A DNA stretch of 64,000 nt from an uncultured Chloroflexia bacterium (GCA_963700285.1 CAVOXA010000010.1:256001-320000); one strand, 5' to 3'; numbered from the stretch's first letter, positions 34,035-55,350 are shown. Notes: generated by a model not told the origin, from the sequence alone. Numbers and translations are program-made.

Positions 34035-34115
34035 GATCTACCCTCCATGAAAACTCGACCCGTTGCAGGGTTCCAGGCCTCAGACCTCCGAGGTCTGGTT
34101 GTGCGATCCAGATGT

Positions 34116-35393
34116 TCAGGCGGCTGACGGCCTGAGTCTAACACCGAATTGCAGCACACCCAAGCTCAGGAAGAAAAGGAATGTGGCAGCGTAAAAGATA
34201 ACGACCAGCCCGAAGGCGTCGCCAATGGACGCCGCGGCGAGAGGCGCCACGGCCCCTACGAGGCTGCCGGGCAGGAAGAACAGAGCAAAGGCCAGCCCCC
34301 GTTGTTTTCCAGGCGACAGCTTGGCCATGATCGCGGCAGTGGCCGCCATACCCAGAAAAGTCAAGAAGCCATAGGTCAGGTACAGAACAACAAAGCCCAC
34401 ATTGTTGGGAATGAGGAAAGCCAAGGCATAGCACACGTAGGACAGCGACAGGATGAAGAGAAGCCACCTCTTCTCTCCGTACCGTACGGCAAAAAAGCCA
34501 CCCAACACGGCGCCGGCGATCCCCACCAGCGTGTTGAGCCCGATGAGCGTACTGGCCGTAGGTCCAGAGAACGCCCTGTCGTCGACCATGTACAGGGCCA
34601 TGAAAGACTGGCTCATCGAGGTGGCCATCGACTTTACGGCAATGTAAATCAGGAACATGATCATGCTGGGCGTGAGCAGCGAAGAGAACCCAGCCTTGGG
34701 TGTACCAGCGGCGGTGACTACCCCCACGTCATCTTTTGGCGCGGATCGGAGGAACAGCACAGATACGATACCCAGTAGAAGGGGCAAGGCCCAAAACAGG
34801 TACACCTGCCGCCAACCGAAGGCAAAGACCCCCATCAAGATGGTGATTGAAAGGGGGCCAAGGGCCACGCCCAAAGTCCCACCGGCTCCGTGAAAGCCCA
34901 ACGCCTTGAGCCTGGCCCTGGGTTCGAAAAGCCTGGTGACAAAACTATAGGCTGCGGGGTGGTACACCGTAGTGTTGATGTACACGAGGCTGACAGCGAC
35001 GATCAACACGACAGGGGTGAGGGCCTGACTGGCCAGAAGAGCACCCGCGGTGGCGATAGCGAGAGCAACTACGATCATCAGCCTGGAACCGAACCTATCA
35101 GACAGCAAACCCGTAGGGATAGACAGGAGCGCCTGGCAGAGAGCAGGAATGGCAGCGATGAGGCCCAGTTGCTGGAGCGATAGGCTGAATTCGACCTGAA
35201 GGACAGGGAATAGCGTCGTGTGGATGCGGGTAAACACGTGCGTGAGCATGTGCGTCATGGTCATGACGAGCAGCCCATAACTGAATATCGATCTGTTACC
35301 CGCTACGGCGTCGGCTGTCCTACCAACCCAACCACGCCCCGCCGTTGGGGCACTCCCTTGATCGTCGTCAACGACGCTCGGAGCCATAGTCAC
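34116..35393 (-). CDS. MFS transporter
   Basis: About 12 TM segments; GLLSDRFGSR and YHPAA motifs. Confidence 0.92.
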   Translation of the reverse strand: MTMAPSVVDDDQGSAPTAGRGWVGRTADAVAGNRSIFSYGLLVMTMTHMLTHVFTRIHTTLFPVLQVEFSLSLQQLGLIAAIPALCQALLSIPTGLLSDRFGSRLMIVVALAIATAGALLASQALTPVVLIVAVSLVYINTTVYHPAAYSFVTRLFEPRARLKALGFHGAGGTLGVALGPLSITILMGVFAFGWRQVYLFWALPLLLGIVSVLFLRSAPKDDVGVVTAAGTPKAGFSSLLTPSMIMFLIYIAVKSMATSMSQSFMALYMVDDRAFSGPTASTLIGLNTLVGIAGAVLGGFFAVRYGEKRWLLFILSLSYVCYALAFLIPNNVGFVVLYLTYGFLTFLGMAATAAIMAKLSPGKQRGLAFALFFLPGSLVGAVAPLAAASIGDAFGLVVIFYAATFLFFLSLGVLQFGVRLRPSAA

Positions 35394-35466
35394 CCTCCCT
35401 TAATCTGCCGCGTCCCAGGCCAACCCGGATGCCGGTCAGATTCGAGCACTGTTCTGTCGCCAGCAA

Positions 35467-36084
35467 TCAGTGCGGTCTTTTGATCTCCAACACATAGGGT
35501 CTGTGGGCTGCTGTGCTGTGGAATTCTTTCCAGAAACCCAGCGATTCCTCCGGGGTCAGCAGACGTGTCAGCTTCAAGTAGACGGGATCCGCGCCCGGAA
35601 AAACAAAGGTAGGCGCACCAAACACGTCCAGCCCTTCGGCCCGCGAATGGTCTTTGGCCAGGCGATGCAGACAGGTTGGATCGACGAGCGCCTGCTCAAA
35701 GGCGGCCATATCGAGGCCGACCTGCGCTGCTACCGCGCGCAGCATCTCGGGCTCGCCCAGCTTTTGGCCCCGCTGATGTCTTTCGCGCAGCAAGGCTAGA
35801 TGAAAGCGTCGGAAAGCCTCTTCGCCCTGGCGCCGCGCCGCCTCAGCAGCCCAGAAAGCGCGAAGAGCCATGGCATAGCTCGACTCTTCCCAATCCTCGC
35901 CGCTCAGAGGCTGTTCCCAGACCTTCCAGGTATCCCCATTCTCATGATTCACCTGGTGCAGCGAGAAGAAACACCAGTGGATATCGAGTTCACCCGGCAA
36001 CGCCTCGTCAACACTCAGGAGCCACTCCGTGGCCCGATAAACGTACGGTCACACATAATCATAGTAGACATCAAATTCAATCAT
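35467..36084 (-). CDS. DsbA/FrnE-like thioredoxin-fold selenoprotein (Sec at codon 12)
   Basis: GGGAGG RBS and ATG at 36084; MIEFDVYYDYV-TGA-PYVYRA is in frame with the ORF at 35467-36000; SECIS-like hairpin; GAPTF cis-Pro loop. Confidence 0.85.
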
Positions 36085-36169: not shown

Positions 36170-37547
36170 TCAAGACGTGCGGTCCGCAAACTCCTGGAAG
36201 ATCGTCGCCGCGAACTTGATGCCCTGCATGTAGCGGTCGACGGGCATGTTCTCATTGGGCGCGTGCAGGTTGTTGTCGGGAGCGCCAAAACCACTCAGCA
36301 CCGCCGGGTGCGGAATGTGGATCATGATGATGCCCTGGGTGCTGACACCGGCGACCATCGGCGGCTCGCCCCAGACGCGCTCGGCGGCGTGGATGATGGC
36401 CTGGCTGATGGCCTCGCGTACGGGCGTCTTGTACGGATTGGGACGCGCCGCGCGCACGACGATCTCGACGTCGTCAAAGCCGTGCTTTTCCAGGTGCGCT
36501 TCCAGCTTCTTGAGCTGATCCAGCGGCTCCAGGTTGGGCGGGCAGCGAAAGTCGAGCTTGGCCGAAGCCTGGGTGGGCACGATGGTCTTGCTGCCCTCGC
36601 CCGTGTAGCCGGCCACCAGGCCATTGATATTGCACGATGCGCCATAGTGGATGGCCTTCAACAACTCCAGGTCATCGTCGAAGGGAAAGTCGCGGGTCAG
36701 GCCAAACTGGCGGCGCAGTATCTTCACGGTCAAAGTGGGCTCAGTTCCTCGCGCAGGTAGTACATATCATCCTCATCAGGGGGCAGCAGGTCGTCGTACC
36801 AGCCTTCGATGAGGATGCGGCCATTCGGCGTCGAACATGCTGTTCGAGACAGTGTACCAGCCGCCAGGGCGCGCTTTTGGCCTGCATCAACTGGGCCCGC
36901 CCGCTCCAAAAGTCGATCTCGTGGGTCTTGACCCGCAGTTCGACGACCAGGATGGCCTTGATGCCCAGGTGGATCTCGGGCTTGTAGGAGGTGCGATGCA
37001 CGCCGCCATCCAGCCCAATGCTGGCGTCGCACTGGCACAGGTCCTGATTGTTCAGCACCCATTCTTCGAGGTGGGGGCTGCCCATCTCCTCTTCGCCCTC
37101 AAAGAGGTAGACCAGGTTCACCGGCAGAGCGCCACGGACCTCTTTGAAGGCCCGCGCTGGCCCGGACCAGGGCCAGCACGCCCGACTTGTCGTCCGTAGC
37201 GCCCCGGGCATAGATCACGCCGTCGCGGATGTTGGCCTCAAAGGGCGGCTCGATCCATTTCTCCAGGGGCTCTGGCGGCTGGACGTCATAGTGGCCGTAG
37301 CACAGCAGCGTACTGGCGTTGGGATCCGCCGGCTTTTTCGGTGGCGTACACCAGGTCCGGCCCGCCAGGAACCGGAATGCGGCGGACATTGGTCAATGCC
37401 GTTGTCCAGCATCTGCCGCTTCAGCAGCTCCGCGCATTCGTCCAGCCCGATGTTCTGGGCGCTGATGCTCGGTTGACGGAGCAATTCTTGAAGCTCCGCG
37501 ACCTCTTCGTCGCGATGCTCTTCGATCCAATCATAGATGTCCTGCAT
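36170..37547 (-). CDS. M20 metallopeptidase (several frameshifts)
   Basis: [31 protein letters not shown] and LHAPNE motifs across frames. Confidence 0.88.
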
Positions 37548-37559
37548 GGTTATCCTCCC

Positions 37560-38937
37560 TTATTGTTGGCCATAGTACCACATGATAGCGGCCGCGTACT
37601 TGATCCCTTTGATATAGTGCTCCAGATCAACGCTCTCGTTGGGCGCGTGCAGATTGCAGTCGGGTTGGGCAAAGCCGGTGAGCACAGTGGGCATCCACAC
37701 GTGCTTGAGGATGGTGCCCTCGGCGCTGACGCCGCTGACCACCGGCGCGTTGCCAAACACCAGTTCGGCGGCCTGTATGATCGCCTGGCTGATGTCCTCC
37801 TTGACGCTGATTTTGAAGGGTGGCTCGGGCGTACCGGTCAGGAAGATCAGCTCAATGTCGCCAAAGCCGCGATCGACCAGGTGCTTGCGCAGCCTCTCGA
37901 CCGCTTTGTCGGGGTCGATATGAGGGGGTAGGCGCAGGTCCAGCTTGGCCCGGGCCTCGTTGGGCACGATGGTCTTGCCGCCTTCACCCTGGTAGCCGCT
38001 GGTCAGCCCGGCAATGTTGCAGGTCGGCTCGTACGGACTTGGCCATGAGGGCCTCTACTCCCTCGCGGCCCAGAGCAAACTGGTCAATGCCCCAGCCCTC
38101 TTTCATCTTGTCCAGGTCCAGGCGGGCAGCATTGGCCTCTAGCAGCTCGATCTCTTCCTCGCCCAGTTCGATGACCTCGTCGTACCAACCATCGACAAGA
38201 ATGCGCCTGTTTCCATCCACCAGGCTGTTGAGGGCGCGGACCAGATCCCAGGCCGGCTGAGGCAGCAATGGAGCGTTCTTGCTGTGGATGTCGGCGTTGG
38301 CTCCCCGGGCGATAAGCTCGATGAACATCACGCTTTTGAGGCCCAAGCCCACCCGGGGTACTAGTTCGCTGGTATCCACGCCACCGTCGAGGCAGTGCAT
38401 GGCATCGGCCTGCACCAACTCGGGGTTGGCCTCGATATAGGGTCCCAGGTGGGGCGATCCGATCTCCTCTTCCCCCTCGGTGATAAACTTGACGCCCACG
38501 GGCGGCTCGCCCAGGGTCTGGCACCAGGCTTTTGCCGCCTTGACAAAGGCCAGTACGCCCGATTTGTTGTCCGTCGCCCCCCTGCCCCACAGGCGGCCAT
38601 CGGCCAACTGGGCACTGTAGGGCGGATAGGTCCAAGCATCCAGCGGTTCGGGCGGCTGAACGTCATAGTGGGCATAGGCCAGCAAAATCTTGGGCGAAAG
38701 ACTGCTGGGCACATGGCCAAAGACACAGGGAGGCCCGCCCGGAAGGGGATGCGCCTTGCCATCCAATCCGTCGGCGTGCATGATCTCTACCACCAAGCCA
38801 GCGCACTCCTCAAGCCCTATCTTCTGGGCGCTGACGCTGGGCTGCTGTACCAGTCGCTGGAGATCGGCCATCGCCTCATCACGGTGGGCGTCGATCCAGT
38901 CGAACGCTGCCTGGAGTCTCGAATCAAGCTTGGTCAC
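37560..38937 (-). CDS. M20 metallopeptidase (frameshift near 38035)
   Basis: YAHYDVQP, GATDNKSG, EGEEEIGS and LHAPNE motifs. Confidence 0.9.
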
Positions 38938-38973: not shown

Positions 38974-40056
38974 CTACAGCCATACCTGCGGAATGCCGTG
39001 CTCCTGATAGAAGGCACGCATCTGTAGGCGCTGGCCGGTTCGGGCAGCCTCGATGCAAGCCCGGGTCAGGGCAAGTGTCTTGAGATGGTCTTTCCCACTG
39101 GTCTCCACGGACCGACCTGACAGCAACGCCTCGACGAACTCGGCCAGCAGGCCCCGGGTATCGTCAACAAAGTGCTCGACCGGCTCGAGTTTGACGGACA
39201 GCAGGGGCTCCGCTTCGTGCTTGAATCGTTCCCCGGTCATTGCCAACTCTGGCGAAAACCTGACTACATAAAGGTCATCGAACTGGGCCTTCTGGATCAG
39301 GACGCCGCCCGAGCAATCGGTACGCCAGCGGAAGTTGAACTCGTTCCAGGCCGCGGTCCAGGTGCCCAGGTAGTTGACACGCAAGCCGCCCTCAAAACAG
39401 AGCAGGGCCGAGACGTTGCTGTCATCCTGGTAGACACTCCAGGGCGGGTTCCAGGTATCAGCCTGGACCCAGACCACCTCACGATCGTAGCAGTAGCGCA
39501 TCAGATCCAGGTGGTGGATCGATTGCTCGAGCAGCATGGGCTGCTCCTGGGTCAGGCAATGGTCATTCAGATCGGCCCGCCTGCCGTCACGATGGCGAAG
39601 GTAGGTGAACTGGGCAAAGGAGGGTTCGCCCAACAGTCGCTGGCGGATCGCGCGCTTGATCGCCTGGTGAGCAGGCAGGTAGCGAAAATTCATGCCTACC
39701 ATCAACTGCAGGCCACGCCTCTCCGCCTCACCGACGAGGTCAAGCGCCTCGGCCAGGTCCTCGGCCAGCGGTTTCTCGGCGAGCACGTGCATGCCCCGGC
39801 GAAAAGCCAGCATGATCTGTTCGTGGTGGACCTCTGGCGGCGTGGCCAACACCATGGCATCTGGCGCTGTCGCGTCAAGAGCGACAGGCAGGCTGGTGAA
39901 ACAGGGAACCCCCTGAGGGTCAAAAAGGCCCTCCGTGTTGAGGTCTGGAAAACGGCGGTCGACGTAGGCGACAGTCTCCGCATCCGCTTCTTCGCGGATG
40001 ACCCGGGCCCATTGCCTGCCTCTGACGCCGACGCCTACCAGGACTATCCTGATCAC
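38974..40056 (-). CDS. Gfo/Idh/MocA oxidoreductase
   Basis: LVGVG.RG, EKP and IHHLD motifs; GTG start with RBS. Confidence 0.9.
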   Translation of the reverse strand: MIRIVLVGVGVRGRQWARVIREEADAETVAYVDRRFPDLNTEGLFDPQGVPCFTSLPVALDATAPDAMVLATPPEVHHEQIMLAFRRGMHVLAEKPLAEDLAEALDLVGEAERRGLQLMVGMNFRYLPAHQAIKRAIRQRLLGEPSFAQFTYLRHRDGRRADLNDHCLTQEQPMLLEQSIHHLDLMRYCYDREVVWVQADTWNPPWSVYQDDSNVSALLCFEGGLRVNYLGTWTAAWNEFNFRWRTDCSGGVLIQKAQFDDLYVVRFSPELAMTGERFKHEAEPLLSVKLEPVEHFVDDTRGLLAEFVEALLSGRSVETSGKDHLKTLALTRACIEAARTGQRLQMRAFYQEHGIPQVWL

Positions 40057-40066
40057 GCTTTTCTCC

Positions 40067-41062
40067 TTAGGTACCGGGCTCAAGTAACGTTGGATGCGCT
40101 CTGGCCCAGGCGAGATAGCTGGACAACCCTGCCCGCAGGTCATACCTGGGTACAAAGCCAAACTCAGCCGTGGCCCTGCCGATGTCCAATACACTGCGGT
40201 CGCCCTCATGGGCGACCTCTACGGCCGCCATCTGGCCTGGCAGCCGATGGCCGAAAACGAAATCTGGCTCCAGGCCGTGCAGGGTTTCCAACACCTCGCC
40301 CAGGGAGTAGGCCGCTCCAGAGGATACATTATAGACATTGTGCTCGAGTTCGGCTGCCAGAGCGAGATGCCGCCAGATCACACCCGCGTCCGCCGCGTGG
40401 GCATAACAGCGCCTATTGGCCTCTCCCCTGGCCTGGACGGGCTGCCGGTCCAGGCAGGCGCGTACCAGGGTATAGATCACAGAAGGGCGGGTCCGCGTTG
40501 CGGTAGCCCGTTCCATGGGGCCATAGATCGAGGACATCCTGCCACTCACGGTCGACAGACCAAAGAGGCTCTTGTACCGTTTCAGGATCTGCTCGCTTGC
40601 GAGTTTGCAGATGACGTACAAACCCTGGGCCTTGACAGGGCTCCGTTCAGTCACGATGGTGTCCCTGTTCTCTACAGGCGCATAGACCCCGGATGAACTC
40701 ATGAGCACAAAGCGGTCAGCCGACACGGTTCGTGCGACATCCAGCAGGCTGACAGTACCCATCAGGTTCACGTTTACAATACGCTGCGGGTTGGCGCGTT
40801 CCATCTCAGCAGTCGGTGTAATGGCGGCCCCATGGACAAGGCGCCGCACCTCGTACCTCTCGGCCATCTCCAGCACAGCGGCGGTGTCCAACACGTCAGC
40901 CGTGACGAACCGGACCCTGTCCTGCAGCCCGCCCAAAAACTGGCGGTATGCTGGGCTTGCCGGGAACAGGTCCAGGGCAATAACCGCCTCGCCCGCCTCG
41001 GCAAGGGCATAGACGACGTGAGCGCAGGCAAAGCCAGTGGCCCCAGTCACAAGTGTGGTCAT
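40067..41062 (-). CDS. NAD-dependent epimerase/dehydratase (extended SDR)
   Basis: TGATGF, SSSGVY, Y...K and YGP motifs. Confidence 0.9.
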   Translation of the reverse strand: MTTLVTGATGFACAHVVYALAEAGEAVIALDLFPASPAYRQFLGGLQDRVRFVTADVLDTAAVLEMAERYEVRRLVHGAAITPTAEMERANPQRIVNVNLMGTVSLLDVARTVSADRFVLMSSSGVYAPVENRDTIVTERSPVKAQGLYVICKLASEQILKRYKSLFGLSTVSGRMSSIYGPMERATATRTRPSVIYTLVRACLDRQPVQARGEANRRCYAHAADAGVIWRHLALAAELEHNVYNVSSGAAYSLGEVLETLHGLEPDFVFGHRLPGQMAAVEVAHEGDRSVLDIGRATAEFGFVPRYDLRAGLSSYLAWARAHPTLLEPGT

Positions 41063-41940
41063 TTGCGCGGCCGGTATCCTCTGCTGGTGGGATAGGGTTC
41101 GATCAACTCGATGGTGACACCGGTCGAGTACTCGGGGTAGATGAAAGCCTCAAAGCCATCGGGGCGGTTGGTAAAGATCTTGTGCTCAAAGATGGGGACT
41201 CCCTGACCCGTGACGCGAACGACGGCATCCCGAATATCGGCTACCTCGATGCAAAGGTGCTCTAGGCCTTCGCCTTTTTCATCCAGGAACTGGCGAACGC
41301 GGGCGTTTTCCCCCCAGCTCTCGGTCATGTGCAGCCAGAGGCGGTCGTTCCCGGGCTCGATCATGACGTCCTTCTGCTCGCCATCGTGCTGGTCGGTGCG
41401 CAGCGCGCGGGCGCGCAGATCAAACAGGCGCTCAAAGCCAGTGGCCGCTGCTTCCAGGTCGCGGACGGCTACGCCGATGTGCTGCAGGCCCAATACCCCC
41501 GAGTCACTAGTCGGGACAGCCGGCTCCCAGATTCCGGGAGCCGGCTGGAGCAACTCCACTGTGACGCCATGGAGATAGTCGCCAGGCACGGCAAAGCGGC
41601 GCCCCAGAGGCGTATCGATCAGGGCCCCATCCGCGAGATCCACGCCCGCCTGCCGAACCCGCTCAAATTCAGCCTCAACGTCGTCCGTCAAAAAGGCAAC
41701 TCGTTCGAGGCCCGGCCCTCTTTTGTTCAAAAAGCTGGACAGCGCCGACCCTGGCTGCCAGCTCTCCATGGCGTAGAGCCAGCAGCCATTGGGAAAGGCG
41801 ATACGTGCTCCCTTGTCCATCCCCAGGAAGGGATCGGGGTCCATGCGCTCCCCAGACAGGCCCAATAGATCCCGGAATGCGTGCCGCGTACGGTCGACAT
41901 CCTCCACGACAAAGCCCACGTAAAGTAACTCAAGAATCAC
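41059..41940 (-). CDS. Two-domain VOC (methylmalonyl-CoA epimerase-like) protein
   Basis: LQHIGVAV, GEGLEHL and GVTIELIE motifs; the N-terminal repeat is degenerate. Confidence 0.85.
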   Translation of the reverse strand: MILELLYVGFVVEDVDRTRHAFRDLLGLSGERMDPDPFLGMDKGARIAFPNGCWLYAMESWQPGSALSSFLNKRGPGLERVAFLTDDVEAEFERVRQAGVDLADGALIDTPLGRRFAVPGDYLHGVTVELLQPAPGIWEPAVPTSDSGVLGLQHIGVAVRDLEAAATGFERLFDLRARALRTDQHDGEQKDVMIEPGNDRLWLHMTESWGENARVRQFLDEKGEGLEHLCIEVADIRDAVVRVTGQGVPIFEHKIFTNRPDGFEAFIYPEYSTGVTIELIEPYPTSRGYRPRK

Positions 41941-42047
41941 GAATCTTGTCCCTCCTTCTGCTCATTGTCAAAGCCCTGACAGGTATCTCTTCCAGCTTTG
42001 AAGCTCTGCGCCCAGATGGTATAGGATGGCGCAGTGGATCAAACCTG

Positions 42048-43058
42048 TCAGGTCTGGTCCACCCGGGGAACCAAATTGTCCCGTACTTCGTCGACGACGG
42101 CATAGAAACAGAGCCAGTCCCCGGTGAGGACCATGGGGCGGAAGCGCAGGCCAAAAACCATACCGTCCTCGGGCGCCCGCACGACCTCGATCTCATCGCC
42201 GTACAGATTATAGATGTGGCCCAACAGGGTCCCCTTTTCCATGGGTACGCGCAGCCGGACATCCTCGCCTATCCACAGGCCGCTCTCATTGGCCAGCAGG
42301 GCGATCTGGTGGCCCCGCTGCCATGTCTCCGGATACTGGGCCTGGCCAGCGATCATGCCATAGTGGCGCATTACGTTGAGATAGGCATCGGAGAGCCGAC
42401 GGCCAACGTCGTGAAAGTCGGTGGTCAGCATCTTGCACCAGCCGCCCAACTCCACGGTGATGGCCCCGTGGCCTTCTTGGGCCAGCATCGAGGAGGGGCT
42501 GCCCCGCCCCACGCCGCTGGTGTTGACCAGATCCCAGTCGGGTCCCATCGCGCCGGCCAGTTCCAGGCACCGGGGCGTCTCGGCAGCAAAGATGGTCGTA
42601 TCCAGGAAGGAATGGTCGCCACCCGAATGGATGGCAATATGCAGGTCACAGGTGTCTTTGACCGCTTCCCAGTGCGCCCAGGCGACACGGTCGGTAGCAT
42701 AGCCATCAGGGCTACCGGGGTAGATGCGATTCATGTCATAAGTGAACGTGTCACGCGGATCGCCGCGGTCGCCGCGCATAAAGGCCTCGATGTTCATCAC
42801 GGGTACAGCTACCAGGGTACCCACCATCTGTTTGGGATCGAGCTGGGGCAGGGTAAGCATGATCGAGTAGGGGCCTTCGGGCTCGTCGCCATGGGTCGCA
42901 CCACTGATCCAGAGGCGGGGACCATCCTCCATGCCCCGGTAGACGATGATGGGCAATTCCCGCTCGCGCCCATACATGTCAGGCCCAATGGGGATCCCGC
43001 CGCGTTTGGCTTCTCCGGGCATGACCGATACTGTTCCGATCTCTAAGGGTTCTGTCAT
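42048..43058 (-). CDS. Succinylglutamate desuccinylase/aspartoacylase-family (AstE/EutE-like) deacylase
   Basis: HGDE, DMNR, IHSG and VELG motifs; C-terminal biotinyl-like hairpin. Confidence 0.9.
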   Translation of the reverse strand: MTEPLEIGTVSVMPGEAKRGGIPIGPDMYGRERELPIIVYRGMEDGPRLWISGATHGDEPEGPYSIMLTLPQLDPKQMVGTLVAVPVMNIEAFMRGDRGDPRDTFTYDMNRIYPGSPDGYATDRVAWAHWEAVKDTCDLHIAIHSGGDHSFLDTTIFAAETPRCLELAGAMGPDWDLVNTSGVGRGSPSSMLAQEGHGAITVELGGWCKMLTTDFHDVGRRLSDAYLNVMRHYGMIAGQAQYPETWQRGHQIALLANESGLWIGEDVRLRVPMEKGTLLGHIYNLYGDEIEVVRAPEDGMVFGLRFRPMVLTGDWLCFYAVVDEVRDNLVPRVDQT

Positions 43059-43140
43059 ACTTGACCTCCTAGCACTTGATAATAACGTTACCACGATTTC
43101 GGCGAATACGCCCGCGCATGGGTGCGGGTTAGCGCTTGAA

Positions 43141-44307
43141 CTAACTGCGCGCGCGTCCGTCCAAAACGCGCGTCATCCGGGCCGCAGCTTCCTGGAGCCG
43201 TTCTTTGGACGTAAGGAAGGATATGCGCAAGTGCTGGCCCCATAGGTCGCCAAAGGAGTTACCGGGAAAGACCAGCACGCGTCCATCTCTGAGGAAGTGG
43301 TAGGACAATTCCTCGGCCGGCATGCCCGTACTGGAGGCATTGGGAAAGACATAGAAGGCGCCCTTGGGCCGGCCGTAAACAAAGCCCATCCCGTCAAGCC
43401 CCGCCATGAGGACGCAGCGCCGCTCGTCGTAGATGCGCCTGTACTCCTCGACGCAGTCCTGGGGGCCGTTCAAGGCTGCAGTGGCCGCCCACTGCGAGAC
43501 CACCGATGTTGCGCGGCTGGCCGTGCTCTTGAAGCCTCGCATGGCATCGACAAGCGGCGCAGGAGCGGCGACGTACCCTATGCGCCAGCCGGTCATAGCA
43601 TAGGCCTTGGATACGGCGTTGAGGGTGATGGCCCGCTCCTTCATACCGGGTAGTGAGGCGATGCTTAGATGGACCGCATCATCATACAGGTAGCGATCAT
43701 AGATCTCGTCAGAGATAACGATGAGGTTGCGCTCCTGAGCGATCTCGGCCAGCCGCCGGATATGCTCAGGAGAGATCACACCAGAGGTGGGGTTGCTGGG
43801 CGTCACCAGAAGAAGCGCTTTGCTGTTGGGCGTGATGCGCGCTTCCACCTCCTCAGGACGCAGGTCAAAATCATCCTCTTCGTAGGTCGGCACGGACACT
43901 ATCTTTCCGCCGGCCAGGTTGATGGCCCCATCGTAGGAGGTGTACCTGGGGTCGGGCATCAAGATCTCGTCGCCAGGGTTCACCAGCGCCTGTATGAGGA
44001 AGAACAATGCTTCCTGGCCGCCCGTCGTAACCTGAACCTCTGTTTCAGGATCGACCAGGATATTGTTATCGCGGCGCAGCTTGCCGGCGATGGCCTGCCT
44101 GAGTTCGAGCAGACCCTGGGGCGGAGGAACTTCCAGCGCCAGGCCCCAACGCAGGGCATCCTGGGCTGCCTGGACGATGTGCCGCGGTGTGTCGAGATCA
44201 GGGTCGCCCCGGCCCAAGGTGATCACGTCGTCCATGGCGGCGGCCATCTCCATCATCTTGTAGCGTAGCTGCGTACCGCTGTCGGACACTTTTTTCTGGC
44301 CGCTCAT
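43141..44307 (-). CDS. PLP aminotransferase class I/II (Lys-bearing)
   Basis: GDPD, GGQEA, PSNPT, DEIY and SKAYAMTGWRIG motifs. Confidence 0.93.
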   Translation of the reverse strand: MSGQKKVSDSGTQLRYKMMEMAAAMDDVITLGRGDPDLDTPRHIVQAAQDALRWGLALEVPPPQGLLELRQAIAGKLRRDNNILVDPETEVQVTTGGQEALFFLIQALVNPGDEILMPDPRYTSYDGAINLAGGKIVSVPTYEEDDFDLRPEEVEARITPNSKALLLVTPSNPTSGVISPEHIRRLAEIAQERNLIVISDEIYDRYLYDDAVHLSIASLPGMKERAITLNAVSKAYAMTGWRIGYVAAPAPLVDAMRGFKSTASRATSVVSQWAATAALNGPQDCVEEYRRIYDERRCVLMAGLDGMGFVYGRPKGAFYVFPNASSTGMPAEELSYHFLRDGRVLVFPGNSFGDLWGQHLRISFLTSKERLQEAAARMTRVLDGRARS

Positions 44308-45509
44308 TGCCCACCCCCAATCCCATGTCCCAGCGCCTGTCGCATGCGGCGCATCGCCTGCTCCAGTTCTGAGAAGGTGGGCCACAGGGAGAGCCGGACA
44401 TGGCCACCTCCCTGCGAACCGAAGCGGCTGCCAGGCATCGTCATGACGCCCGCCTGGCCAAGCAGCCAGGCAGCAAAATCCTCTGAAGAGCGGCCGGTAC
44501 CGCGTACATCCACAAACAGGTATGGCGTGGCGACCGGCTGGCTATGGGGCAATCTCATGCCATCCAAAGCTGCAAGCACGTACCGCCTCTTGGCATCCAG
44601 CTCGGCCCTTCTGTGCAGCAGCCAGTCCTGCGAGCCGGTGACGGCCTCTAGCGCTGCATACTGGGACATGGCACTGGTGCAGATGGTCATGGCCTGCCTC
44701 AGGTTGCGCACCGGCGCCACCAGTGACCGGGCACCTGCAAAGTAGCCCACCCGCCAGCCAGCCAGAGCATGGAGCCTCGAAAAACTGCCCACAACGACCG
44801 TTCGCTGGGCCGCTTCAGGGAAAGAGACGATACTCGTGTGGCGTACGTCGCCGTTCAAGGATTCGTCCAACGATTCGTCAGCGATGACGGTTAGATGACG
44901 CTCCTGGACCAGCTCGGCGACACGGGCCATCTCATCCGCCGGGATAATCGCACCTGTAGGATCAGCAGGATCTCTCAGCAGCAGGACACGGCTCTTGGGC
45001 CCAAGAGCTTGGCGAATACGATCTGCCGTCATCACAAAGCCATCATCCGCCAGAAGGGGAACTGGGACGACGTCTCCCCCAGCCAGGCGGATGGCTTCAT
45101 CGACCCAAGCCGGGCGCAGAGCAGGGACAAGAACCTCAGTCTCCGGCTGCGCCAGCACCTGAAGGGCGATAAAGACCCCCTCTCGTCCCCCGCAGGAGAT
45201 GACCACCTCGGTGGCGGGGTCGACTGTGAAGCCTTGCTCACTTTCCAGCTTACGGGCCACAGCCTGGGCCAATGCTGGCAGGCCAGACCGGGTGGTATAG
45301 TGCGTCTCACCTTCGTCGAGCGAGAGCACCACCGCCTGGATCACGTTCTGGGGGAGCAGGCCAGGCCCATAGTCCGTACTCAAATCGAGGATCCCAGCAA
45401 AGCCGGATTGCCCGGGCTGCGCCTGCGGCGGCGGCGTCACACTCCAGTCTCTGGCCCGTCTGGCAAGGGCAGCCGCCATCGGGCCCGGATCGGCACCTGT
45501 TTTCTCCAT
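44304..45509 (-). CDS. Class I/II aminotransferase homologue lacking the PLP lysine
   Basis: THYT, DESL and SFSRLHALAGWRVG motifs; 4-nt overlap with the next gene. Confidence 0.88.
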   Translation of the reverse strand: MEKTGADPGPMAAALARRARDWSVTPPPQAQPGQSGFAGILDLSTDYGPGLLPQNVIQAVVLSLDEGETHYTTRSGLPALAQAVARKLESEQGFTVDPATEVVISCGGREGVFIALQVLAQPETEVLVPALRPAWVDEAIRLAGGDVVPVPLLADDGFVMTADRIRQALGPKSRVLLLRDPADPTGAIIPADEMARVAELVQERHLTVIADESLDESLNGDVRHTSIVSFPEAAQRTVVVGSFSRLHALAGWRVGYFAGARSLVAPVRNLRQAMTICTSAMSQYAALEAVTGSQDWLLHRRAELDAKRRYVLAALDGMRLPHSQPVATPYLFVDVRGTGRSSEDFAAWLLGQAGVMTMPGSRFGSQGGGHVRLSLWPTFSELEQAMRRMRQALGHGIGGGQ

Positions 45510-45570
45510 GGAACACACATCCCTTCCAGTCACTGGCTACCACACCCGATGCGGTAGCAGGCATTGAGAC

Positions 45571-46452
45571 TCAGCGATAGGCGCCCAGGCCCATCAAACG
45601 GGCCACATTGGCCTGAGGGGCATGGACGGGCAGGATCTCGCTGCCGGAACCCGTCATGAACATTGTCATCCCTGGGCCAAAGCCGGTACGTACGCTGTCG
45701 CCATGTCCAACGATGCCGACGCTCATGGCACCCCGCCAGTAGCCCGGAGCATAGAGACACTCATAGTCTTCCACGGCAATGATGTCGCCCAGCCTGAGAT
45801 CCTGCAGAGCATATTTCTCCACCACACCGGGCGAGCCGGTCTGGATTTGAAGACAGCCACCGTCACTATCCAGCCCAGTGCCAGCACCCATAAGCTCAGC
45901 CGGGAGGGTGGCCACAACCGGTACCTGGAGCTGGCCACCCGACTCGGTGATGCCGATCATTTCCAGGAGAGCAGGATCTATGTTCTTCACCTCGATACCG
46001 GCAAAGCCCTCGATGGCCGCGCCGCGGCCAAATGCTTTGACCACGATGGGATCTCCAACAGCAAGGTCGTCCAGCGCCTCGGGCGGAAAGTCAATGATGA
46101 CGTGGTCCATAAAGCGCCCGCTCTTGCCGGTAACGGTGCCCTTGGCCCCTTTGGCCCGGCCAGACATGACCACAGCTTCATTGCCAACGGAGGCGTAGAC
46201 CTTGAGCGCCCTGTGGGCGGCGGCGTCCTGGGCTCGAATACTCACCCCGGGCTCGATCAGTTCCGCGGCCCAACCGAGCGCCGGGTCACCACTGCGCACA
46301 TTGTACACAATGCCACCGTTTAGCGGCAGCAGCGAAGGCTTACCTTCGCGCGAGATAAAGTGGGGGTTCCAGGGAACAGAGGGGAATCGCGGCGCGTCAA
46401 CCTGACCCATGACCGAGATCCGGACCAACCTTTTTTTGTTTGTGGTTATCAT
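45571..46452 (-). CDS. DUF4438 family protein (copy B)
   Basis: TN...LV..SV.G, GGIVYNVR.GD, EPGVS, VGN.A.V.SG.AKG, LRLGD and GPG motifs. Confidence 0.85.
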   Translation of the reverse strand: MITTNKKRLVRISVMGQVDAPRFPSVPWNPHFISREGKPSLLPLNGGIVYNVRSGDPALGWAAELIEPGVSIRAQDAAAHRALKVYASVGNEAVVMSGRAKGAKGTVTGKSGRFMDHVIIDFPPEALDDLAVGDPIVVKAFGRGAAIEGFAGIEVKNIDPALLEMIGITESGGQLQVPVVATLPAELMGAGTGLDSDGGCLQIQTGSPGVVEKYALQDLRLGDIIAVEDYECLYAPGYWRGAMSVGIVGHGDSVRTGFGPGMTMFMTGSGSEILPVHAPQANVARLMGLGAYR

Positions 46453-46465
46453 TTGATGCTCTCCT

Positions 46466-47388
46466 CTATGCCCATCGACCAAAGTTCAGATAGTTGGCGA
46501 TATTTGCGTCCGAGTCAATACGGGGTACGATATGCGGGGTCGGGCAGGATAGCAGCGTCATGACCCCGGGACCGTGCCCCGTCATGAAACAATCGCCATG
46601 GTTGATCAAGCCGATGACAACAGCCCCCTCTTGATAGCCGCGCCCGTAGGTGTGATCTTGATCCTGGATCGCTACCAAGTCACCGAGGCGCAGATCCGTC
46701 AGTCCAAGCTCGCGCATCAGGGCCCGATCCTCGGTGGCCATATCCTGGTCCACGAACTCTGGGAACAGCTCCATGCCCGAACCCATGATCTGGGGCGGGA
46801 ACATGTGCGTCACCGGCACGCTCAGCTTGCCATCACCCGTGGGTTCCAGGGGCAGGGACTCGATCAACTGCGGGCTGCACTTTCGCACGCTGATGTGGGG
46901 GTAGTCAAGCAACTCCAACCCGAGGCCGTAGGTTTTGATGAGAATCCTGTCGCCGACACACATATAGTCCAGGTGTTCGGGCTCAAAATCGATGAGCAAG
47001 CGGGCATGCTCTCCTGAAACCATGCCAGTGGCTCCCGCCGCTTCACCAGAGACGACGACAGCCTGGTTGCCCACACAGGTCAAATAGTGCATGGCATAGT
47101 CTTGCTGCTCGTCCGGGTTGTGGATCGACACCCCCGGCTCTAGATGGTCGGCTTCCCAGCCAAAGGCTGGATCGCCAACGCGCACGTTGTAGGCAATCCC
47201 GGCCATGCCGATGGGGATAGTGGAACGGCCAGAGTTGTCCGGTCGATAGCCCGGTCCCAGCTTTGGCGGAGAATCTCTCCCAGTACGGCCATTTCTACCA
47301 GATGGTCTCTATTGGTTTGAATCACTTGGACCTCCGTCACGGGCTCCACCTTTGCGGCGATGGTGGAGGACGCCGTATCGTCGTTCAT
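46466..47388 (-). CDS. DUF4438 family protein (copy A; frameshift near 47272)
   Basis: TNRDHLVEMAVLGEI, then GIAYNVRVGD, ADHLEPGVS, CVGN and HGD...GHGPGV. Confidence 0.85.
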
Positions 47389-48551
47389 CACGATGTCGCT
47401 AACAGGTTATGAACCACATATTTGATCTGGTCCGCAGTCAACTCGGGGAACATGGGCAGGCACAACAGTTCCTTTGCGACTTGCTCGGTCACAGGCAGAT
47501 CTCCTTCCCTGTATCCCTGCTCGCGGTAGATCGACTGCAGGTGCACCGGAGGCGTATAGAGCACGTTGGTATGGATGCCCTCTTTGGCCAGACGTATCCG
47601 GACCTCATCACGGCTCCCAACACGAATCACATAGTTGCGATAGACGTGCTCGTATCCCTCGGGAGCATAGGGCGTCCGCACATTCGCTCCAGCCAGTAGC
47701 TCGCTGTATGTGGCGGCCACCTCACGCCGGCGCGCGATCCAACCCTCGACGTGGCGCAGCTTGGTGTGCAGGACCGCAGCCTGGAGGGTATCCAGGTGGT
47801 TGTGATAGCCTTCTACCTCATGTTCCAGGGGCTGGAGCAATGTGACCGGTCCAACCTGCTCAAAGCGCCGCCGCTCACCATAGCTGCCCCACAATCGGAC
47901 CCTGTCGGCCAGCTCGGGGTCGTCGGTGACCACCATGCCCCCATCTCCGTAGGCGCCGAGGATCTTGTGGGGTGCGAAACTGAAGCAACCCAGGTGGCCC
48001 ATACTGCCAGCCAGCCGGCCACGGTAGCGGGCGCCAAAGGCCAGTGCCGCGTCCTCGACCACCAGCAGGTCGTGCCTCCCCGCAATATCGAGGATGGGCT
48101 CCATGTCGGCCGGCAGGCCATAGAGATGGATAGGCATGATAGCCCGGGTCCGAGCTGTGATTTTGGCCTCTATCAGGGTGGGATCGATGTTAAAAGTCCG
48201 CGCATCGATATCGACGAAAACCGGTGTTGCCCCCGTATGGCTAATGGCCGAGGCCGAAGCCACATCTGTGTTCGCCGCCGTAATCACCTCGTCACCCGGT
48301 CCCAGGCCGCCGGCCTTGAGCGCCAGGAAGAGGGCCGCGTATCCCGAGCCTACACCGATGGCATGCCGTGCTCCACAGGCACGGGCGAATGCTGCCTCAA
48401 AAGAGCCCAGTTCCTCGCCCCGCTCGAATTCACCGCTGTCCAACACACGCTGGATGGCGGCGTCAAGCTCCTCTTTGATGGATGCATACTGCAGCCGGAG
48501 ATCGCCATACGGCACGACCAGGTCTGAAGCCGATCTGCCCGCTTTGTCCAT
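47388..48551 (-). CDS. DegT/DnrJ/EryC1/StrS-family aminotransferase
   Basis: HLYG, VEDAA, FSFAPHKILGAYGDGG and LPM motifs. Confidence 0.93.
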   Translation of the reverse strand: MDKAGRSASDLVVPYGDLRLQYASIKEELDAAIQRVLDSGEFERGEELGSFEAAFARACGARHAIGVGSGYAALFLALKAGGLGPGDEVITAANTDVASASAISHTGATPVFVDIDARTFNIDPTLIEAKITARTRAIMPIHLYGLPADMEPILDIAGRHDLLVVEDAALAFGARYRGRLAGSMGHLGCFSFAPHKILGAYGDGGMVVTDDPELADRVRLWGSYGERRRFEQVGPVTLLQPLEHEVEGYHNHLDTLQAAVLHTKLRHVEGWIARRREVAATYSELLAGANVRTPYAPEGYEHVYRNYVIRVGSRDEVRIRLAKEGIHTNVLYTPPVHLQSIYREQGYREGDLPVTEQVAKELLCLPMFPELTADQIKYVVHNLLATS

Positions 48552-48614: not shown

Positions 48615-49804
48615 CTAAACCGTCACAGTCAGCGATTCCATGTCCCTGGGATAGTGGGTCAGGCGCTCATGGCCGTCCTCCGTGACCAGGATGGTATCAG
48701 AGTGGCGGAAGCCGGCATCACCCGGGAAATAGAGGCCGGGCTCGCAACTGAACATCATGCCGGGCTCCAGCACGGTCTGGTCGCCGGGATCCAGATAGGG
48801 GTGCTCGTGGGTTTCGATCCCTTTGCCGTGGCCGGCGTGGTGGCGCAGCGCGCCCTCCATGCCATGCTTCCTGGTCACACCCACCACGGCGTCCCACACG
48901 TCGCAGCAGCGGACGCCAGGCTTGACGGCCTCCATGCCCACCGTTTGAGCTTCCAGCATGACCTGGAACCGGGTCTCGTCGATGGGGCGGCGCCGCCCAA
49001 AGAACCCAGAGCGCTCCGTCTCCCCGATATAGTTGCAGACAGCGGTACCGTAGGTGATCATGACTACCGAGTCCGGCTCGAGGCGGGCGGTCCCCTTGGG
49101 ACCATGAGGCAAGGAGCTGGAGCCGCCAAATAAAGTGCGCCCAAATACCAAGCCCTCGGGCGTAGCCGTTAAAGTCAATGATCTCGGGCAGTTCGGCCAG
49201 CATCTTTTGGATGACGGCCTCCTCAGCCTGGCGGTGCACCTCGTACTCGGAGACCCCCTCGCGAAGCAGCGAGAAGCCAACGCCGACCAGGTAGTCACAA
49301 TAGCGGCTGCCCAGCCGCATGAGGGCGATTTCCTCCGGCTGTTTGATCAGCCGCAGCTCAACCAACAACCGGTGGGCATTGCTGCACCCCGTCTCCCAGA
49401 CCTGCCCGGAGGGCCTCGTAGCCCTCGACGGCATCGGACATCACCAGGTTGGCCATATCGACGCCCACACGCTTACCGGAAAAGCCCCGGTCCGCCAACC
49501 TCTGCGCAACCCAGTCCCAATCGCCCTCCGGATAGTCAAAGTAGGTGTCCACGTCCTCCAGCCACGGGGACTTGGCGTGCAACTGGTCGATCTCTAGTTC
49601 TGTGGTGATGGCAAAAACCTGTCCATCGGGCAGAAATCCTATGCCGATGGGCCTCTCCGTGCTCATATGGAAAAAGCCGGTCAGGTAGGCAATGGTCGTC
49701 GCGTCAAAGACCATCAACAGGTCCAAACCGGCGGCGTTGATTCGCTTGAACAACTCCTGGCGCCGGTCGGCATGAAACCCTTGGCTTAGTTTATAGGTCT
49801 CCAT
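48615..49804 (-). CDS. M24-family (creatinase/Xaa-Pro-like) hydrolase (frameshifts)
   Basis: YLTGF...TERP, LRLIK..EEI, PHG, HHAGHG, HE.P, EPG and FRHSDT motifs. Confidence 0.88.
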
Positions 49805-49872: not shown

Positions 49873-51101
49873 CTACTTGACTGCCACCCCGCCCTTGAAG
49901 ACCTGGACGATCCTGGCCTCCTCTTGAAGGGTACGGATGTCGACCAGCGGATCACCGTCCAGGATGACGAGGTCTGCATACTTGCCGGGCTCGATGGTAC
50001 CTACCTTCTGGCCCATGTCGAGGCACTCTGCCCCTACCTTGGTAGCGGCGACAATCGCCTCCATGGGCGTGAAACCGAGCTTGACAAATTCCTCCAGCTC
50101 GCGGGCGTTTTGGCCGTGATAGACCAGGAACCCGGCGTCGGTACCAGCGGCGATCTTGACCCCCGCCTTGCGGGCACGTTCCATGGAACCCAGCTTGTCC
50201 TCCTGAGCCCGGAGCAGCCAGGCGTAAACGTCCTCCGGAAGGGGCTCCTCATCCGCCCCCTCGACGCTGAGCGTATTGACCAGCAGGGTAGGCACCAGAA
50301 AGACGTCACGCTCGGCCATCATATCCACCTGCTCCTCCGTGAGCCAGTGGGCGTGTTCCACCGAACTCGACTCCCGCCCGAATGGCATCGGTGAGTCCAG
50401 GCCCCCCGGAGGTGTGGGCCGCTACGCGCTTGTTGCACCAGCGGGCCTCCTCACAGATGGCCGCCATCTCTTCGTAGGTCATCTCCTGGATCCAGGGCGC
50501 ATCCAGGTCATGGCCGCTGCCCCCGCAGGCATTGATCTTGATAAGGTCCACCCCCCACTTGATCTGGGTCCGGGCCGCTTTGCGGCACTCCCAGGGTCCG
50601 TCGCAGACCCCTGTACGGCCGGCAATCGTCACCGCCGGTGACCAATAGGGCTTGTCCATGTGCCCACCGGTGCGGCTCAGCCCCTGACCCGCCACTCGCA
50701 GACGAGGACCCTGTACGGTACCCTCGTCGATGGCGTTGCGCAGGGCAACGTCGACGTAGACCGGGTGAAGCCATGCTCCGCAGAGACGTAAAGCCCATAC
50801 GCAAAGATTGCAGGCCATAGCTGTAGGCTCGCAGGGCAATTGTACCCTCGAACTCGCGTGCCTCGGCGAGGGCATAGTTGGCGCTCGGCCCCCCCGGCGT
50901 GTGAATGTGTACGTGGGCATCGACGAGACCCGGCAGGAGCGTCTTGTCGCCCGCATCCAGTACCTCGGCGCCGGGTGGAATCTCGACCTCTTGGGCCGAG
51001 CTGACCTGGCTGATCTTGTCGCCATCGACGAGCACCACGGCGTCGCTCAGGGGCTCGCCACCGTGGCCGTCGATCAGGGTTCCAACACGGATCGCTAGCA
51101 T
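49873..51101 (-). CDS. Amidohydrolase, prolidase-like (frameshifts)
   Basis: PGLVDAHVH, TGGH.D, IK, VAAH, VEH and AGTDAG motifs. Confidence 0.88.
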
Positions 51102-51121
51102 GGCATCTCCATCCTGTCCAC

Positions 51122-52615
51122 CTAATGTCGCCATCCCAACCAAAAACTCTCGTCAGTCTCCAAATAGGGGCTGACGTCAAAGCGGGCAAAGGCCCGGGCT
51201 GCAGCTTCGCGCGCCCCTTCCAGGACCGAAGCCTCGTCCACCGATAGGATTTTTCGGCCCTGCATCAACATCTTGCCGTCGACCAGGACCGTGTCCACAT
51301 CGTTGCCGTTGGCATAGAAAGCCAGCAGGCGCGGCACCATCGAGTCAGGCACCAGGTGGGGCCGGTTCATGTCCACCAGGATGATATCCGCCCGCTTGCC
51401 CATCTCCAGCGAACCAACCTGGTCGTCGAGGCCCAAGCGCACGGGCGGCGTCAATGGTCACCATGCGCAGCGCCTTCCCCGCGGGGATCAACCGAAAGTC
51501 GCCAAACCGCTGTCCACTGGGCCCACATGGCCCGCGAGATCTCTTTGAAGAGATCGTAGGAACAGTAGGGCGCCGTCCCATCAGTGGAGATGGTGACGTT
51601 GGCCCCGGCCTGCAGCAACTCGACCGCAGGACAGACGCCATGGACGATATTCTCGGCTGTAAAGGGCACCAGGGCAACGTTGACACCTTCTTCCCCAAGC
51701 GGCCGAACCTCATCCTCGGCCCAGGCCGTTGCAGTGGGCCAGCACGACGTCCGGCCCCAGCAACCGGCGAACGCGCTCTGGTCCAAAACGCTCCAGCCCA
51801 AAGGTGATCGAGTCCCTGAAGGCGTGGGAGTGGAGCAGGACTTCGTAGCGGTCTGCCAGGTCCCTGATCTCATCCGCCTTTTCGATGATCACGGGCAGAT
51901 GCTCATCGGTGTAGGTAAAAGGGAATTTGGGATGGGTCGCGTGCCGACCAAAGAGGTAGGGATACGTGCAGCGCCGCCTGGACACGACCATCCGCAGCGC
52001 CATGCCAGGCCTCGATGAACGAGACCGAGTTTTGCAGGGCCTGCTCGTAGGTAAATCGGCGCCGGCACAGGCTGGCCACCGTTCCACAGCGTCCCCTACC
52101 AGGGTTCTGGCAGGTGGGACACAAAGGGATCTGGTGGGCCTACGCCCAGCACCCCGCGGATGCCCACCGACTCGACGGCCTCGGCCTGGCGCATGGCAAA
52201 GATCGGGCTATCCATACGGGCCGGCGTCGCACCGACGACGGTCAGGCCGCAGGTCACGCCGAACCTGAGCCGCTCCACGGCAGACAGCAACCCCTCAGCA
52301 GACCACCACTCCTCGTCGGCAGCGTGGAAGTAGAGGTCGTTGGTCGGCCAACCCAGCTCGGGATGGCGGATGGCTTTGATCATACCGTGGCCGGCATGGC
52401 CATAAGTGTCCACCAGGCCGGGCATGACAGCTTTGTACCTGGCATCCAGGATGCTATCGGCCTCAAAGTCCCGGCGCACATCCTGCGATGGAACCGACGG
52501 CAGCGATGGCATTGCCCTGCTACAGCCACTGCGCCATCGCGATGACGCGATGCTGGGGGTCCATGGTCACGACCACGCCCCCTTCGATTATCAGGTCTAC
52601 GCGCTTTCTGTTCAC
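51122..52615 (-). CDS. TRZ/ATZ-type amidohydrolase (frameshifts)
   Basis: GGVVVTMD, PGLVDTYGH, LAHC, STDG and GSLE.GKRAD motifs. Confidence 0.85.
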
Positions 52616-52682
52616 AGTGCGCTCGTGCCTTTCCAAGAATCCTGGCGAAGGTGCAAACGCTTGCGCCGTCGCCAAGATCGAA

Positions 52683-53577: not shown

Positions 53578-53598
53578 GTTCTAATCCTCCATCCGACT

Positions 53599-55292: not shown

Positions 55293-55350
55293 TTCGATTC
55301 CTCTCCAGAGTCCTTCGCGCGGTGTCGGTGTATGCTAGGCTGCTTCAGGT

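Follow-up and report, generated by a model that had tools for sequence, protein, structure and literature searches.

The window considered here comprises 64,000 nucleotides from an uncultured Chloroflexia bacterium (GCA_963700285.1, CAVOXA010000010.1:256001-320000; genome size 7.05 Mb, 22 contigs), and our subject is a run of nine genes at 38974..48551 that encloses two tandem copies of DUF4438. An initial annotation had described these genes as a co-oriented, uncharacterised and more plausibly catabolic module. All nine open reading frames (ORFs) are indeed encoded on the minus strand and match the named Pfam families above cut-off. From the upstream end, and with the higher coordinate of each gene as its likely start, the run consists of a DegT/DnrJ aminotransferase (47388..48551), two proteins with the domains DUF4438 and DUF4438_C (copy a, 46466..47325; copy b, 45571..46452), two class I aminotransferases of the family Aminotran_1_2 (aminotransferase 1, 44304..45506; aminotransferase 2, 43141..44307), an AstE_AspA-family deacylase (42048..43058), a two-domain glyoxalase/VOC protein (41059..41940), an extended short-chain dehydrogenase/reductase (SDR) of the epimerase/dehydratase family with a YxxxK motif (40067..41062), and a GFO_IDH_MocA oxidoreductase (Gfo, 38974..40056). 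Intergenic gaps range from -4 to 107 nt, and the 4-nt overlaps reported at 44304-44307 and 41059-41062 are confirmed. A third reported overlap, at 47388, is less secure: an ATG is present, but the stretch behind it is not conserved in a relative of the same genus (likewise an uncultured Chloroflexia bacterium), and the overlap is therefore probably incidental. DUF4438 copy a likely starts with the GTG at 47325, behind GGAGG.

The assembly is rich in frameshifts. Most genes flanking the nine are broken here and whole in the same-genus relative; among the nine, only DUF4438 copy a is affected (1 nt, at 47272). Since a short-read contig has the extra base at this position (with 2 other differences over 242 nt) and the 92%-identical relative has copy a intact, the frameshift is likely an assembly error. 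The limits of the module were drawn too narrowly: the co-oriented run spans from approximately 33,000 to past the end of the window, with the nine genes as its middle part, and is flanked in the same orientation by M24, amidohydrolase, M14, VOC, aldolase-like and M20 genes. A peptide ABC (ATP-binding cassette) importer lies 3-7 kb past the window end (G000:C10:323035-326766, on the contig of the window); it consists of a family-5 solute-binding protein and two permeases, which are 34-60% identical to those of other DUF4438 clusters. Scans for promoters and terminators remained near chance (3 versus 4.8 expected and 16 versus 11.5 expected). A run from an RNA library yielded four short, near-identical contigs over the aminotransferase genes, which cannot demonstrate transcription.

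Both DUF4438 copies exceed the gathering cut-offs of PF14505 and PF20999 (24.9 and 27 bits) by a wide margin, with 147 and 151 bits for copy a and 149 and 123 bits for copy b. The copies are 39% identical and differ at a set of conserved polar residues. Copy a keeps D60, H61, E63, H107, S183, D193, D195, H243 and H251, which are invariant in all 12 a-type and all 5 single-gene proteins compared. Copy b carries the replacements H61L, H107S, S183A, D193C, D195Q and H251F; among 13 b-type proteins H61 is retained once, and H107, S183, D193 and H251 are never retained. The b-type proteins keep K106 and a loop histidine, both of which are found in single-gene proteins and are absent from a-type proteins. 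In the tree, copies a and b form separate supported groups with matching subgroups. These patterns suggest that the two proteins likely form a hetero-oligomer with sites between the subunits. A predicted complex of a and b provides weak support (score 0.36, best control 0.00; at least 95% of contacts agree between runs, partner pLDDT at least 89). Of the solved pairs, 51 of 78 attain the mark applied, as do 2 of 108 mismatched ones; attaining it with a score of up to 0.60 is seen for only 5 of the 78 solved pairs, but for all 4 passing mismatches. A distinct lineage (support 100/99) of 20 proteins has a degenerate and an intact DUF4438 fused in one chain, and 15 of these bear a signal-peptide-like extension of 24-30 residues before the domain. 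For this lineage the extension suggests a reaction outside the cytoplasm; the call uses a crude hydropathy rule only in combination with the extension, as 9 of 30 cytoplasmic-type controls also reach a hydropathy of 2.0. Two further chains were left out of the count as possible assembly read-throughs, namely P0271 (an a+b fusion from one contig) and P0291 (Gfo with a partial DUF4438).

A relative with a solved structure is TM1086 of Thermotoga maritima (PDB 3DCL and 3N99; PF14505 and PF20999), which shares family and fold (sequence E-value 2e-67). Modelled from the same-genus relative, in which it is intact, copy a (pLDDT 96) superimposes on it with a TM score of 0.93, a root-mean-square deviation of 1.4 and a Z score of 41. 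The TM1086 entries are large assemblies of 5 and 30 chains, and the crystallisation report mentions an asymmetric unit of 'more than 1 MD' (PMC2661377). Whether run with all of copy a or with the C-terminal domain alone, fold searches returned TM1086 only, a result that does not by itself show the fold to be new; the remaining matches are of the generic beta-barrel kind (Z up to 8.0 for the N-terminal part and up to 4.5 for the C-terminal domain). The ESM Atlas gave no usable match once DUF4438 families were excluded. The term DUF4438 was found in no paper, in a search that covered few subscription journals, and for TM1086 only crystallisation is reported, no functional paper on 3DCL or 3N99 being evident from titles and the beginnings of abstracts. 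In these searches a described function was found neither for TM1086-type nor for paired DUF4438 proteins. DUF4438 most likely catalyses a hydrolysis or an elimination, for which it would need neither NAD nor PLP (pyridoxal phosphate) nor ATP.

The second pair in the run are the two aminotransferases. Both belong to the class I family, as annotated, though one of them is without the catalytic lysine. Aminotransferase 1 has an arginine at the position of the PLP lysine and eroded motifs (DP for NP, DESL for DxxY, which reads DEIY), and keeps the tyrosine of the HY motif. Aminotransferase 2 has the lysine, NP and DxxY, so that the PLP residues of its own subunit are intact, and a valine in the HY tyrosine column. 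The same division is found in other clusters. Degenerate copies keep the tyrosine in 28 of 28 cases and the lysine in none of the 28 (2 are truncated before the lysine and 1 is a broken gene of the intact type); intact copies beside a degenerate one keep the tyrosine in none of the 23 covered, versus 17 of 18 unpaired intact copies, the exception being at a contig edge. In 11 loci the degenerate partner has only about 235-245 residues or is truncated in the alignment, consistent with retention of the large domain. The closest solved relatives of both proteins are the Pyrococcus horikoshii enzymes 1DJU/1GD9 (with the aromatic aminotransferase 1DJU closest to aminotransferase 2) and the Thermus thermophilus aspartate aminotransferase, all of fold-type I, class I. 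These are homodimers with two sites; here, unlike in those, lysine and interface tyrosine sit in two genes. The HY tyrosine is presumably equivalent to the residue described as Tyr70, which is supplied by the neighbouring subunit. At the subunit interface, Tyr70 is in contact with the phosphate of PLP (PMC6715241). With the lysine in one gene and the interface tyrosine in the other, the simplest reading of the sequences is a heterodimer with a single PLP site. No heterodimeric aminotransferase was found among the literature matches listed. GntC, the top NCBIfam match of both proteins, was rejected as below cut-off (247 and 320 versus 415).

The distribution of the DUF4438 pair places these observations in a broader context. 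A search of GTDB genomes with copy b as query yielded 23 loci, of which 20 hold the a+b pair, one has copy b at a contig edge, and two have a single gene and are archaeal. Loci with the pair are found in Chloroflexota (including Thermomicrobiales), Armatimonadota, Pseudomonadota and Deinococcota. With the addition of a further genome locus and of the best 80 of 439 metagenome loci, the set of loci with a b-type gene grew to 79; of these, 67 have enough sequence to show the order of the copies, and in 66 of them copy a is the immediate upstream neighbour of copy b. Few genomes have the pair (2 of 61 relatives, with this genome included in the count, and 2 of 401 genomes at the level of the phylum), and DUF4438 has no match among 72,556 plasmids. 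Neighbours were counted at the 46 loci of at least 8 kb that hold a b-type gene; the counts are lower bounds (flanks of 10 kb, own ORF calls) and are not independent, as several loci are near-duplicates. The most frequent neighbours are class I aminotransferases (32 of the 46 loci), Ldh_2 (32), VOC proteins (29), hydantoinase-like amidohydrolases (23) and peptide permeases (18-19), followed by AstE, Gfo, GntR and M24 (16 each), SDR (15), a GHL10-like protein (13), M14 (12), epimerase (12-14), 2-hydroxyacid dehydrogenase (12), M32 (11), M20 (10), a PuuE-like protein (8) and DegT (6); a ureidoglycolate-lyase-like gene occurs in 2. At least two of the 18 recurring neighbour families are present at 42 of the 46 long pair loci, versus none of 14 long single-gene loci. 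Among cultured strains, Aureimonas jatrophae DSM 25025 has the complete cluster (G455:C15, about 549-579 kb).

The same data bear on whether the genes constitute one pathway at all. They could also be a loose scavenging island, in which broad-specificity hydrolases of blocked peptides lie near the DUF4438 pair and serve no single route. This would fit the variation in gene order among lineages, the roughly 100 kb of similar hydrolases around the site, and the lack of the usual neighbours at 4 of the 46 pairs. It fits poorly with the recurrence of the same orthologous groups across phyla at 40-62% identity, with the presence of at least five of the 18 families at 35 of the 46 loci, and with the matching subgroups in the trees of copies a and b, and we regard it as very unlikely. 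The initial annotation had held that an unconserved order combined with pairs in unrelated contexts would speak against a module; unrelated contexts are seen at only those 4 long loci. The neighbourhood comparison it had proposed thus supports the gene content, but not the order of the nine genes, which is found only in the same-genus relative. That the module is catabolic and provides a handle on DUF4438 is supported by the conserved content together with importer and GntR regulator. The cluster is a real, uncharacterised catabolic unit of a familiar general kind, which holds an enzyme family of unknown chemistry.

DUF4438 genes outside such clusters present a different picture: TM1086-type proteins are encoded by single genes in unrelated contexts, unlike the ordered intact/degenerate pair in a catabolic cluster. 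The contexts of single-gene DUF4438s indicate no substrate. In the phylum to which A. jatrophae belongs, 64 of the 401 genomes sampled have one DUF4438 match each; nearly all are small (1.6-3.1 Mb), and they are probably one lineage. In 8 of 10 fetched loci the gene lies, by reading, just upstream of a nitrilase-family gene (L165-L170, L173 and L175, from genomes G552, G556, G621, G468, G504, G480, G615 and G488); the six of these nitrilase-family genes that were scanned have their greatest similarity to deaminated glutathione amidase, with scores below cut-off. This hints at a role of single-gene DUF4438s in metabolite repair. The genome considered here has a third DUF4438, of single type (G000:C1:1425513-1426388), directly downstream of a gene that by eye resembles the saccharopine-dehydrogenase family.

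Several enzymes of the cluster point to amino-acid chemistry. Directly upstream of the nine lies an M24-family hydrolase (48615..49804, minus strand), which frameshifts divide into 3 pieces here and which the relative has whole. Xaa-Pro peptidases of this family bind metal through D, D, H, E and E. Compared with prolidase 6XMR, three of these five ligands are changed in the relative's intact copy (D to Y, D to E, E to S), and four orthologues from other clusters are likewise altered; the upstream M24 protein is for this reason likely a creatinase/DoeA-like amidine hydrolase rather than an Xaa-Pro peptidase. The deacylase has intact zinc motifs (HxxE, NR, H, E) and is closest to DoeB and the aspartoacylases, with DoeB as its best, though weak, solved relative (E-value 7e-20). 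The upstream M14 carboxypeptidase has orthologues at 12 of the 46 loci. In the VOC protein, the His/His/Glu set is kept in the C-terminal domain, and both histidines are lost from the N-terminal one.

The nearest described counterpart is the breakdown of ectoine in Halomonas elongata (doeABCD), in which a creatinase-like M24 ring hydrolase, an AstE/AspA deacylase of a family that acts on N-acyl amino acids, and a transaminase act in series (PMC3187862). The cluster resembles doeABCD in combining M24, AstE and a transaminase. It differs in that the scores lie far below the cut-offs (DoeA 69 versus 613 bits, DoeB 82 versus 403 bits), which excludes identity with DoeA and DoeB, in that no aldehyde dehydrogenase is among the recurring neighbours, and in that it adds a peptide importer, carboxypeptidases, sugar-type redox enzymes and DUF4438. 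A likeness also exists to the catabolism of creatinine, hydantoin and allantoin, given hydantoinase-like, PuuE-like, Ldh_2, isochorismatase and oxoprolinase neighbours; unlike in those pathways, no curated pathway model reaches its cut-off in the core. Mannityl-opine catabolism of Agrobacterium may resemble the cluster as well, with importers that use family-5 solute-binding proteins. We know of no DUF4438 in creatinine, hydantoin, allantoin or mannityl-opine catabolism.

Our preferred interpretation, to which we give a little better than an even chance, is that the nine genes form the central part of a more extended conserved cluster, which would degrade an imported, chemically modified amino acid or short peptide. 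This reading predicts a substrate with a cyclic amide or amidine group and probably also with a polyol part that stems from a sugar. What is observed is the gene content, its association with a peptide-type ABC importer and a GntR regulator, and the residue patterns. A peptide-borne residue is suggested by the carboxypeptidases and the peptide importer, a cyclic ureide or amidine by the hydantoinase-, PuuE- and AllD-like neighbours, and a polyol or sugar part by the DegT clade, Gfo, the epimerase, lyases of the dihydrodipicolinate synthase (DHDPS) and RraA types, and the GHL10-like protein. In the proposed route, the importer would take in peptides, from which M14, M32 and M20 peptidases would release the modified residue. 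The metal-poor, creatinase/DoeA-like M24 protein and hydantoinase-like amidohydrolases would open the ring, and the AstE-type enzyme would strip the resulting N-acyl group. Aminotransferases 1 and 2, acting as one heterodimer with the lysine from 2 and the interface tyrosine from 1, would then yield a 2-oxo acid, and Gfo, SDR, DegT, VOC and aldolase-like enzymes would work on the polyol or keto-acid part. Within the putative DUF4438 hetero-oligomer, copy a would provide a His/Asp site, possibly metal-binding, and copy b a few interface residues.

DegT bears on a different assignment. The initial annotation had favoured an N-acyl amino sugar, aminocyclitol or nucleoside-like substrate. In such a route for an aminoacyl or N-acyl amino sugar, an aminocyclitol or an aminonucleoside, the acyl group would be stripped by peptidases and the deacylase, DegT would remove the ring amine, and Gfo and the epimerase would oxidise and isomerise the sugar. 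The window DegT has the PLP lysine and an FSFAP[HRL]K motif, and the seven cluster DegTs (the window included) group apart from the six other DegTs of the genome (SH-aLRT 97), as a cluster-specific clade. The closest solved relatives include sugar transaminases of the DesV, QdtB and WbpE types; the Pfam family is matched above cut-off, and the best named NCBIfam equivalog (PseC, ArnB, WecE, DesI and others) stays below it (248 versus 423.5). In another cluster DegT adjoins Gfo, and Gfo, epimerase and GHL10-like genes recur in the numbers given above. On the other side, DegT lies within 10 kb of the pair at only 6 of the 46 loci and together with a window-type Gfo at only one; A. jatrophae has no close DegT, its best match, at only 35% identity, being encoded away from its cluster; enzymes of amino acids and ureides are the most frequent neighbours; a sugar kinase is absent from the recurring families; and the deacylase family acts on N-acyl amino acids (PMC3187862). 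A sugar- or cyclitol-type part of the substrate thus stays plausible, but a substrate that is mainly an amino sugar is unlikely, an amino acid or peptide being the better match. SFAP-motif DegTs are also found in a different peptide-ABC cluster (L152:9265-16215 and L153:6952-10702), which by eye holds MmgE/PrpD-like genes, two AstE-like genes and an M24 gene. The GHL10-like gene (L012:15588-17015) encodes a protein of 476 residues without a Pfam or NCBIfam match, which in its features is similar to GHL10 glycoside-hydrolase-like clusters (score 0.97; family on 20% of members).

DegT, Gfo and epimerase are equally typical of nucleoside diphosphate (NDP)-amino-sugar synthesis, and one pair locus (L009) holds in addition an NDP-hexose 2,3-dehydratase and a GT2 gene, as would suit the biosynthesis of a metabolite or glycan that contains an amino sugar. 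The earlier remark that glycosyltransferases and nucleotidyltransferases are missing holds, however, both for the scanned window ORFs (our own picks) and for the 16 ORFs in the next 18 kb upstream. Nucleotidyltransferases, glycosyltransferases, flippases and ligases are likewise absent from the recurring families, and no ligase or flippase is among the scanned window ORFs. As importer, GntR and many hydrolases predominate, we consider biosynthesis highly improbable.

The ureide enzymes among the neighbours allow for a further possibility, namely an oxidised or modified purine-type nucleoside or ureide, such as a substituted allantoin or guanidinohydantoin, degraded by AllB- and PuuE-like ring opening, AllD-like oxidation and glyoxylate reduction. 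The counts of hydantoinase/AllB-like, AllD/ComC-like Ldh_2, PuuE-like, 2-hydroxyacid dehydrogenase and ureidoglycolate-lyase-like genes (23, 32, 8, 12 and 2 of the 46 loci) agree with this. The scores of these relatives all remain below the curated cut-offs (AllB 305/358, PuuE 355/425, AllD 134/496), M14 and M32 carboxypeptidases are a poor fit, and the window's own cluster is without these genes. Moreover, the Ldh_2 proteins of the clusters (L112:3539-4615 and orthologues) have an invariant G-x-G-Q-G at the site where the histidine that we take to be the catalytic residue of the family is expected. We regard this route as quite unlikely.

A number of points weigh against degradation of a modified amino acid or peptide as we propose it. 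The evidence on the substrate is all indirect, and no fold match other than TM1086 informs the DUF4438 reaction. The score of the a+b complex may be driven by the solved homo-oligomer of the family, and the secreted fusions are a different lineage that may have a different job. Loss of the aminotransferase tyrosine is confined to one well-supported clade and one other sequence and hence counts as one or two events, so that the alignment is read as recording one strong co-evolutionary event, not 23; alphaproteobacterial clusters carry two intact aminotransferases instead of the intact/degenerate pair. Four of the 46 pair loci have fewer than two of the usual neighbours, and some neighbours in the window may be passengers, given its location in a stretch of about 100 kb full of amide hydrolases. 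Finally, this genome and its relative lack a close orthologue of Ldh_2 (best 35-37%), and the common VOC, hydantoinase and GHL10-like genes have no close orthologues in this genome; for this reason its pathway may differ from the common one.

The window version of the cluster is indeed distinct in composition. The Gfo has relatives of 40-50% identity at 15 further long pair loci. The window VOC and epimerase are only 24-38% identical to the versions of other clusters, and the two-domain VOC is only 24-29% identical to the single-domain VOC of most others. DegT occurs together with AstE or Gfo at 1 of the 46 loci, and by gene content the window appears as an unusual version that unites the DegT-bearing and the Gfo/epimerase/AstE-bearing cluster types. 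Approximately 75 kb upstream, G000:C10:376884-381056 encodes an amidohydrolase, an intact aminotransferase, VOC, RidA and GntR; the amidohydrolase is 64-72% identical to that of alphaproteobacterial DUF4438 clusters, and the genes are possibly a displaced part of the same pathway.

The remaining genes of the run, all on the minus strand, extend it in both directions. Downstream follow two tandem M20 dipeptidase-like genes (36170..38937), frameshifted here and intact in the relative, and then a DsbA-like gene, a major facilitator superfamily transporter and a second Gfo/Idh/MocA gene (33039..36000), which probably mark the 3' end. Upstream lie two amidohydrolases, a second two-domain VOC, the M14 carboxypeptidase and a second M24 gene (49873..56588), mostly frameshifted in the assembly. 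Further upstream (56855..64000) are an aldo-keto reductase, two RraA-like genes, two deaminase-type amidohydrolases, a DHDPS-family lyase, a beta-lactamase-like gene and an M20 gene. The class A beta-lactamase-like protein (PF13354, 62510-63292) is probably a serine amidase and not a resistance gene. Three further units are found elsewhere in the window. A separate hydantoin-utilisation operon on the plus strand (28695-32961) converges on the DUF4438 cluster and consists of GntR, an Asp/Glu/hydantoin racemase, an ErtD-like hydantoin amidohydrolase (512 bits, cut-off 650) and an ErtE-type N-carbamoyl-glutamate amidohydrolase that exceeds its cut-off (540/520). A second peptide-ABC catabolic unit (18768-28577, plus strand) holds GntR, a solute-binding protein, two permeases, an amidohydrolase, RidA, a divergent DegT-like protein and an M20-like protein. 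The beta, biotin-carrier and gamma subunits of a sodium-transporting decarboxylase are encoded at 15644-17695 (minus strand).

As to the identity of the modified residue, a glycation adduct is our favoured guess, because a sugar-derived amino-acid adduct would join the peptide, ring and polyol lines of evidence; an arginine hydroimidazolone such as MG-H1 or 3DG-H, or an Amadori product, is nonetheless rather unlikely to be the actual substrate. The Amadori routes Frl and Gfr employ a fructosamine kinase or a phosphotransferase system together with an SIS-type deglycase (PMC12735817); these components are found neither among the Pfam matches of the window nor among the recurring families. No gene cluster for hydroimidazolone or glycation catabolism was found among the literature matches listed, judged by title and the beginning of the abstract, with subscription journals poorly covered. 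In its boldest form, and as a speculation with little probability, the cluster would be a bacterial pathway that recycles glycation-damaged peptides by import, release of the adduct, creatinine-like ring opening and recovery of nitrogen and carbon, with DUF4438 as a new hydrolase or lyase fold that acts as an intact/degenerate hetero-oligomer beside a single-site heterodimeric aminotransferase. Should a glycation adduct prove to be the substrate, the cluster would reveal how the nitrogen of damaged protein is mineralised by bacteria in the environment and would supply enzymes against such adducts.

For the aminotransferases, the division of PLP-site residues over two genes makes an obligate single-site heterodimer a sharp and cheaply tested prediction. 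DUF4438 is a family with a solved structure and no function found in print, and neither of its domains resembles a characterised enzyme. With a conserved cluster that has its own importer and regulator and is complete in a cultured strain, the function of DUF4438 is directly testable.

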